Assembly: GCF_003334335.1 (NCBI RefSeq)
Contig: NZ_QOWQ01000185.1
Direction: 5' to 3' (one strand)
Length of the DNA: 480 nucleotides
Source: Escherichia coli
GTDB lineage: Bacteria > Pseudomonadota > Gammaproteobacteria > Enterobacterales > Enterobacteriaceae
The translations under genes were made by a program, and so were the position numbers. The first letter of the stretch is position 1. Each line of letters starts with the position of its first letter. Below are positions 1-480 of the stretch, one piece after another. The notes under the pieces are model-generated. The model ran no database searches and was not told where the DNA came from. It worked only from the letters and a program-made list of their open reading frames with translations.

Positions 1-395
1 CCCAGTGCCTGTACCAGACGTTCCGTGATAAGGCGGTCTGCCTTGCTGGGTGTGACTTCACCGGACGGGTGATTGTGTGCCAGCACCACAGCAGCGGCAT
101 TGTGATACAGGGCGCGTTTAATCACTTCACGGGGATGGACTTCCGTGCGGTTGATGGTGCCGGTGAAGAGGGTTTCACCGGCAATCAGCTGATTCTGGTT
201 GTTCAGATACAGCACCCGGAACTCTTCACGCTCCAGTCCCGCCATGTTCAGAATCAGCCATTCTCGTGCCGCACGGGTGGAGGTGAAGGCCACGCCGGGT
301 TCATGAAGATGGCGGTCCAGGGTTTTCAGGGCCCGTTGAATGAGGCTGCGCTCGCCGGGCGTCATCGCGCCGGGCAGAAAGGAAAGCTGTTGCAT
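1..395 (-). CDS. yeeS: RadC-like JAB/MPN-domain protein (UPF0758 family), N-terminal 131 codons; C-terminus lies beyond position 1
   Basis: Minus-strand ORF starting at ATG (plus coords 393-395) and open to the window edge. Translation: MQQLSFLPGAMTPGERSLIQRALKTLDRHLHEPGVAFTSTRAAREWLILNMAGLEREEFRVLYLNNQNQLIAGETLFTGTINRTEVHPREVIKRALYHNAAAVVLAHNHPSGEVTPSKADRLITERLVQAL(G). It contains the JAMM signature H-x-H-x7-S-x2-D (HNHPSGEVTPSKAD) typical of RadC/JAB proteins. A GGAGAG Shine-Dalgarno lies 7 nt upstream of the ATG. From memory the sequence closely resembles E. coli YeeS, but the paralogs YkfG and YfjY are very similar and I cannot tell them apart without a search, so the symbol is tentative. 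An alternative in-frame ATG at 408-410 would add MERST to the N-terminus. Confidence 0.85.
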   Translation of the reverse strand, partial: MQQLSFLPGAMTPGERSLIQRALKTLDRHLHEPGVAFTSTRAAREWLILNMAGLEREEFRVLYLNNQNQLIAGETLFTGTINRTEVHPREVIKRALYHNAAAVVLAHNHPSGEVTPSKADRLITERLVQAL

Positions 396-402
396 TGTAC
401 TT

Positions 403-408
403 CTCTCC
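403..408 (-). promoter_or_regulatory. Shine-Dalgarno / ribosome-binding site for the RadC-like CDS
   Basis: Minus-strand GGAGAG (plus-strand CTCTCC at 403-408), followed by a 7-nt spacer (AAGTACA) and then the ATG at 393-395. Sequence and spacing are canonical. Confidence 0.7.
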
Positions 409-410
409 AT

Positions 411-480
411 TCAGTCGATGATGCGCATAATGGCGCTGCATTCCGGATGCTGCAGGGCGTAATCCCGCAGCCGGTAATAA
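411..480 (-). CDS. 3' end of upstream co-directional gene; probably an antirestriction protein of the KlcA/ArdB-like YfjX/YafX family (assigned by synteny)
   Basis: Minus-strand frame is open from the window edge to a TGA stop at plus coords 411-413. Translation of the tail: YYRLRDYALQHPECSAIMRIID*. It is in the same orientation as the RadC-like gene and 15 bp upstream of its start. The family assignment rests on the conserved gene order antirestriction -> radC-like in CP4-57 and CP4-6 type islands (established knowledge), not on recognising these 22 residues. In K-12 CP4-44 the gene at this position is yeeR instead. Confidence 0.5.
   Translation of the reverse strand, partial: YYRLRDYALQHPECSAIMRIID

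Follow-up and report, generated by a model that had tools for sequence, protein, structure and literature searches.

The junction between an antirestriction gene and yeeS in Escherichia coli, which lies in the stretch of 480 nucleotides analysed here (the window), is very probably an ordinary operon junction led by a Shine-Dalgarno (SD) sequence, where yeeS would start at the ATG at 393-395 and the ATG abutting the upstream stop codon would be incidental. Judging from the sequence comparisons, selection does not maintain the stop-adjacent ATG as a start codon, and MERST, the "peptide" of the spacer, is not a conserved one. The junction as such is already known and correctly annotated, and the current start annotation of yeeS (MQQ..., 158 aa) is confirmed as sound. 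The case shows that a start codon touching a stop codon need not imply reinitiation or isoforms.

On the minus strand, the junction reads ...ATG CGC ATC ATC GAC TGA ATG GAG AGA AGT ACA ATG CAA CAG CTT TCC.... One frame runs through the upstream open reading frame (ORF), the spacer, and the downstream ORF, with the translation ...IMRIID*MERSTMQQLSFLPG... (also given, in a single frame throughout, as ...IMRIID*MERSTMQQLSFLPGAM...). The sequence-only reading had described TGA, ATG, GGAGAG, and ATG as lying in one frame, and this description is exact to the base. The coordinates are collected in Table 1.

Table 1. Features of the window at and around the junction.
Feature	Position	Strand	Remarks
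Antirestriction gene, 3′ end (KlcA/ArdB-like, Pfam Antirestrict)	411..480	-	Last 22 codons, ...YYRLRDYALQHPECSAIMRIID, plus TGA stop at 411-413; the PGAP CDS WP_000849588.1 ends at 411
Intercistronic spacer, 15 nt, ATGGAGAGAAGTACA	396..410	-	Non-coding; holds the yeeS ribosome-binding site
Stop-adjacent in-frame ATG	408..410	-	Judged incidental; in 8/27 junctions; no SD upstream; never the annotated start in the records examined
Shine-Dalgarno GGAGAG	403..408	-	Spaced 7 nt from the yeeS ATG; shares its first G with the stop-adjacent ATG
yeeS start codon (RadC-like JAB protein, MQQLSFLPG...)	393..395	-	PGAP start in 10/10 RefSeq records; ATG invariant in the alignment
yeeS coding sequence, codons 1-131 of 158	1..395	-	Gene continues beyond the window
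Internal ATG (Met11)	363..365	-	Start codon annotated for the shortened YeeS of E. coli K-12

The upstream protein matched the profile of the antirestriction family in Pfam (PF03230, E 3.2e-37, residues 66-161); Pfam alone gave a match, and no NCBIfam model was matched. YeeS matched the RadC-like JAB domain in Pfam (PF04002, E 1.7e-44, residues 38-157) and scored 149.6 bits against TIGR00608, which is above the cutoff of 133.85. It is not the canonical chromosomal RadC, because its score against the equivalog NF000642 (159.8) falls below the cutoff of 180. E. coli EC416 is 100% identical to the window, and PGAP there ends the antirestriction gene at 411 and starts yeeS (JAB domain, 158 aa) at 395. 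The neighbours in EC416 are Ag43, an IrmA-family gene, DUF905, DUF932, the antirestriction gene, yeeS, yeeT (DUF987), a CbeA/CbtA-type toxin-antitoxin pair, DUF5983, and DUF957. The locus is a CP4-44/CP4-6/CP4-57-type island cassette, with the order DUF932, antirestriction, RadC-like JAB (yeeS), DUF987 (yeeT), and then the CbeA/CbtA toxin-antitoxin pair. The window was matched at 12,887 places in 4797 of the 5426 complete E. coli genomes (~88%), the median copy number per genome being 2.

With regard to the translation of yeeS, the proposed mechanism is a simple one. The antirestriction gene and yeeS would be read from one mRNA, and YeeS translation would begin at ATG 393-395, placed by the GGAGAG in the 15-nt spacer, as conservation and annotation suggest. 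Ribosomes may load de novo at the yeeS SD, or they may be aided by ribosomes that terminate 15 nt upstream. The ATG that touches the TGA would have arisen in one E. coli/E. albertii cassette lineage as TGA-AT-GGAG, simply because A and T by chance occupy the two unconstrained positions that separate the stop from the SD.

The downstream ATG has the expected ribosome-binding determinants. The best duplex with the anti-SD (the 3′ end of 16S rRNA) before ATG 393-395 has an energy of -6.4 kcal/mol, with a gap of 7 nt between GGAGAG and the ATG. This ATG is invariant among 27 homologous junctions, and an SD lies 5-8 nt 5′ of it in all 27, with duplex energies of -6.0 to -10.8 kcal/mol. No favourable anti-SD duplex was found in the 20 nt preceding the stop-adjacent position in any of the 27 junctions, the window included. 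It had been claimed that the downstream ATG carries an SD at a working distance and that the upstream ATG lacks one, and both statements hold; the downstream ATG is also the start in every annotation examined.

Among E. coli RefSeq records, the PGAP start is the downstream ATG in 10/10 (EC416 with 100% and nine others with 92.7-98.5% identity). E. coli B, which carries the stop-adjacent ATG allele (derivative, L094 3068-3088), is likewise annotated from the downstream ATG. The best 120 protein clusters (at 90% identity) were taken from a search of 5.8 billion proteins. An N-terminal motif, M[QK]Q[LI]xFLPG, was present in 101 of these best 120 clusters, of which 99 begin with the motif (MQQ/MKQ). 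The motif-first clusters rest on gene calls from NCBI, ENA, and Logan, and those from ENA and Logan include clusters with thousands of members. A MERST start was seen in one of the best 120, a 284-aa metaclust protein with a second Pfam domain, PF13708. In a collection of 15 billion proteins, the exact 163-aa MERST protein was absent and the exact 158-aa protein was found on 992 contigs. Annotation pipelines had been expected to disagree on the start; since 99 of the 101 motif-bearing top clusters as well as all ten RefSeq records agree on MQQ/MKQ and the 163-aa form is absent, the predicted disagreement was not observed.

The 27 junctions, all of the same gene pair, comprise 11 of the E. coli/E. 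albertii yeeS type, yafX-ykfG of K-12, and 15 from other genera (Citrobacter, Kluyvera, Buttiauxella, Leclercia, Siccibacter, Tenebrionibacter, Yersinia, and Enterobacter). The stop-adjacent ATG is found in eight of them, every one of the E. coli/E. albertii yeeS type, and is missing from both K-12 paralogues and from all 15 non-Escherichia junctions. The other 19 have CCG, CCA, ACG, ACA, AAA, AAG, or GCA at this place, which makes eight triplets overall with ATG. The chance of any given triplet being ATG is about 1/64, and the stop-adjacent ATG does not exceed chance expectation.

The spacer is the most variable part of the alignment. Along with the window allele ATGGAGAGAAGTACA, the E. coli spacer alleles include ATGGAGAGAAGCACA, ATGGAGGCAGGGACA, ATGGAGGCAGAGACA, and AAGGGGGCCGGAACA. 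Two further E. coli alleles, AAGGGGCCGGAACA and GCAGGAGAAGTACA, have spacers of 14 nt, which break the frame; thus, neither spacer length nor frame is kept. The 25 junctions with 15-nt spacers yield 13 different spacer "peptides", including MERST, MEAGT, MEAET, KGAGT, PEEQR, PKEQQ, TEGQR, and PEV*R, the last of which (Yersinia, L014) has an in-frame TAA stop inside the spacer. In the upstream gene, codon positions 1/2/3 have entropies of 0.20/0.13/0.52 (mean pairwise nucleotide difference 0.13); the values are 0.27/0.17/0.69 for yeeS (0.17) and 0.96/1.13/0.77 for the spacer (0.42). Both flanking genes show third-position bias; the spacer is flat, without codon periodicity, and its variation is about three times higher. 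In the alignment, what is conserved of the spacer nucleotides is a ribosome-binding site and not a set of codons.

These results bear on the two N-terminal isoforms that had been proposed. As a real feature, they find no place in the comparison, given that the ATG is absent in 19/27 junctions, the MERST codons vary non-conservatively, and 14-nt alleles exist. The sequence-only reading had itself named divergence of the MERST codons around a preserved ribosome-binding site as the outcome that would speak against the upstream start, and this is what was found: the codons diverge, and a purine-rich SD is kept in 27/27 junctions.

A more distant branch of this gene pair (L018-L022 and L029, from Cedecea, Buttiauxella, Serratia, and Rahnella) has TAA followed at once by GGAG, in an 11-nt spacer, GATTAAGGAGTTTTGCCATGGAG. 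In this branch, the stop, the immediate SD, and the ATG are retained, and the spacer differs in length and is out of frame.

The frequency of the alleles in E. coli was assessed with 51-nt junction queries against the 5426 complete genomes. Both ATG-bearing types are common: the MERST-type junction was matched in 3357 genomes, with 1915 records whose best place is at least 99% identical, and the MEAGT-type in 2269 genomes, with 802 such records. The two ATG-less types were matched less often, the KGAGT-type in 877 genomes (no record at or above 99%; best 98%) and the ykfG-type in 479 (484 records with a best place at least 99% identical). An ATG-bearing allele is present in more than half of the complete E. 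coli genomes. The MERST-type and MEAGT-type spacers differ at 6/9 bases after the shared ATG. Between them, these two divergent alleles are matched in most E. coli genomes, so the ATG cannot count as a rare variant. ATG alleles coexist with ATG-less alleles of the same cassette, often within a species and sometimes within one genome.

The retention of the ATG in two divergent, common spacer alleles is one of the points in favour of dual initiation, by which ribosomes terminating in ATG-bearing alleles would restart on the abutting ATG and produce a minor YeeS longer by five residues (MERST- or MEAGT-extended). The TGA and the ATG are also contiguous and in frame. It was reported that reinitiation is most efficient at overlap or near-zero distance and falls steeply with distance (PMC10666635); zero being the most efficient geometry, some use of the ATG is mechanistically possible. 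However, the stop-adjacent ATG has no SD, and removal of the SD abolished reinitiation in one of five E. coli pairs and lowered it by 60-90% in another three (PMC6728339). The only SD sits immediately 3′ of this ATG, so the P-site of an SD-bound ribosome falls downstream of it. Moreover, the ATG is missing in 19/27 junctions and the extension peptide is not conserved, and depletion of RRF left coupling unchanged in E. coli (PMC7538156). The junction comparison gave no sign of selection for MERST-YeeS. Such a minor isoform is therefore unlikely, and it is just as doubtful that, as a part of the same reading, YeeS output would be coupled allele-specifically to the synthesis of the antirestriction protein. 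Reinitiation at the stop-adjacent ATG as a functional start, which had been suggested for the upstream ATG, is not supported, considering that this ATG has no SD and occurs in only 8/27 junctions. If the minor isoform were true, it would represent a small, probably neutral, allele-specific case of SD-less reinitiation at zero distance and one data point for the debate on post-termination reinitiation by E. coli ribosomes.

The paralogous K-12 junctions, yafX-ykfG and lfgA-lfgB (formerly yfjX-yfjY), have the same arrangement as the window, an antirestriction gene followed by a RadC-like JAB gene with an SD in a short spacer. In yafX-ykfG (K-12 CP4-6), there is likewise a TGA with a 15-nt in-frame spacer, but the stop is followed by CCG instead of ATG, and the junction reads TGA CCGAAGGAGCAACAG ATG. 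In lfgA-lfgB (K-12 CP4-57), by contrast, TAA and 8 nt precede ATGATG, and there is no stop-adjacent ATG. These CP4-57 paralogues, yfjX and yfjY, are now annotated as lfgA and lfgB (L084 5920-6869).

The window also resembles the short-spacer, SD-bearing polycistronic pairs described by Huber et al. 2023 (PMC10666635), in that the genes are co-oriented, the downstream gene has its own SD-led ATG, and the spacer has room for an SD but not for a terminator together with a promoter. Its genes are co-oriented across 15 nt, with a conserved SD 5-8 nt before the start; the spacers of that class measure +9 to +12 nt, compared with 15 nt in the window, for which co-transcription is inferred. Termination-reinitiation (TeRe) pairs with ATGA or TGATG overlaps (PMC6728339, PMC10666635) share with the window a start at or near the stop, the distance here being 0. 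In E. coli, however, TeRe starts typically follow an SD located within the upstream gene, in a conserved arrangement (PMC6728339, PMC10666635), whereas the stop-adjacent ATG of the window follows no SD, is lineage-specific, and has a separate start with its own SD 15 nt further downstream. Of the traits of TeRe starts, the stop-adjacent ATG thus has proximity to the stop and lacks an upstream SD and conservation. Genes with in-frame alternative starts, such as infB, clpB, and mrcB (Meydan et al. 2019, 10.1101/520783), resemble the window in having two in-frame ATGs, which in principle might yield two N-terminal forms; unlike in these genes, the added residues show no conservation at the protein level, and ribosome-binding determinants are lacking at the additional start. 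The same study mapped starts in E. coli BL21 by Ribo-RET (reference genome CP001509.3), with 36 upstream in-frame starts listed for this strain; its data are relevant to the junction in that E. coli B has the ATG allele. An extension conserved at the protein level with coding-type substitutions, as in dual-start proteoforms, was not found at the window junction.

The 15-nt gap without a visible promoter had been taken to suggest that the two genes are co-transcribed, and this fits with the present results. When L001 3700-8600 was scanned for consensus matches, the coding strand showed no sigma-70-like site, although the absence of a consensus match is no proof against an internal promoter. Between the antirestriction gene and yeeS, the scan detected no terminator-like hairpin. 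Terminator-like hairpins at L001 4634-4663 and 8563-8589 flank the block from DUF932 to DUF957, which suggests a putative eight-gene transcription unit spanning DUF932 to DUF957, the junction included. Both flanking hairpins are strong, with stems of 13 and 11 bp followed by T runs. The gap between yeeT and the antitoxin gene is 162 nt and could still house an internal promoter.

A parallel is offered by K-12, where, according to Wood and colleagues, yfjXY-ypjJ-yfjZF forms the lfgABCDE operon and MqsA co-represses lfgA and lfgB (PMC10846083). It was also reported that a polar effect of lfgA::kan on lfgB is suspected, because the lfgA phenotype could not be complemented and the lfgB phenotype could (PMC10846083). 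In addition, E. coli pairs with spacers of +9 to +12 nt carry SDs, and 194/201 of them are polycistronic (PMC10666635). A single transcript for the antirestriction gene and yeeS would be consistent with the spacer length, the scans, and, by analogy, the lfgABCDE work.

In 25/27 junctions, a single frame continues from the stop through the 15-nt spacer into yeeS, an arrangement that would also permit programmed readthrough of the TGA and an antirestriction-RadC fusion protein. A database protein of this composition exists, P0020 (275 aa, PF03230+PF04002), which runs ...IMRIIDRKGAGTMQQ...; it is, however, a singleton with Arg replacing the stop and thus reflects a mutation or a sequencing error, not readthrough. 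A second in-frame stop (TAA) lies in the spacer of Yersinia L014, two E. coli alleles have 14-nt out-of-frame spacers, and no readthrough-promoting structure was found with RNAalifold or an Rfam scan. Readthrough is scarcely credible on this evidence and was rejected, in view of the in-frame stop in L014, the 14-nt alleles, and the occurrence of fusion proteins as singletons only.

Over window positions 396-413, P0020 (from ENA) reads ...IMRIIDRKGAGTMQQISFLPGEM..., with an Arg codon at the position of the TGA. One base change is enough to fuse the antirestriction and RadC-like proteins, because the stop, the spacer, and yeeS share a frame. Other singletons with both PF03230 and PF04002 are P0038, P0047, P0061, P0086, and P0090. 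There is also a 46-aa ORF (MQRHYAHHRLNGEKYNATAF...) at 301-441 on the minus strand, in the +1 frame relative to the genes; it begins within the terminal part of the antirestriction gene and runs on across the junction in that shifted frame. Five proteins of 173-198 aa (P0067, P0071, P0083, P0091, and P0101) contain or begin with the peptide of this ORF and still carry PF04002; the peptide was probably joined to the RadC frame by frameshifted assemblies or miscalled starts.

The start at 393-395 leaves room for a further layer of control, in which a hairpin formed with codons 4-6, the pyrimidine tract CUUUCCUUU, would sequester the yeeS SD and start, so that YeeS would be made only after ribosomes finishing the antirestriction gene melt the hairpin. 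Such structure-mediated coupling would be compatible with the main explanation. In the minimum free energy fold of the window allele, GGAGAG pairs with CUUUCC (codons 4-5), and the SD purines pair with the pyrimidine tract in about 7/10 alleles. Furthermore, CTTTCCTTT (378-386, minus strand, yeeS codons 4-6) is nearly invariant across genera, synonymous sites included. On the other hand, the fold energies of ten alleles are no better than those of dinucleotide shuffles (z -1.47 to +1.25), and the RNAalifold consensus of 18 junctions reaches just -1.77 kcal/mol, mostly through G-U pairs, and its SD helix lacks compensatory substitutions. Any nearby pyrimidine tract will pair with a purine-rich SD. 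The predicted hairpin is accordingly improbable as a regulator of yeeS. The codons neighbouring CTTTCCTTT do vary synonymously.

A conserved RNA structure at the junction was rejected as evidence, with the consensus at -1.77 kcal/mol and folds equal to shuffles. The Rfam scan of the window returned one chance-level match (E 0.56, 13 bits versus a gathering score of 181).

In CP4-44 of K-12, a deletion took window positions 366-480, the whole antirestriction gene, and its upstream neighbours, and the K-12 matches (H38/H39) cover query positions 115-480 only. There, yeeR is joined directly to yeeS (L002 2960-3040), and the K-12 YeeS (148 aa) begins with Met11 (363-365), whose codon overlaps the yeeR stop as ATGA and is preceded by GAGGAGAG. 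By its sequence, this yeeR-yeeS overlap is a textbook reinitiation geometry that appears to be a product of the deletion. A GC-rich hairpin, CCGGCGCGAUGACGCCCGG, at 355-373 on the minus strand (yeeS codons 8-14) surrounds Met11. Only the E. coli yeeS-type alleles have this hairpin, whereas other genera read CCCGGCGAGATGACGCCACAGG at this place, and the K-12 deletion endpoint falls within it.
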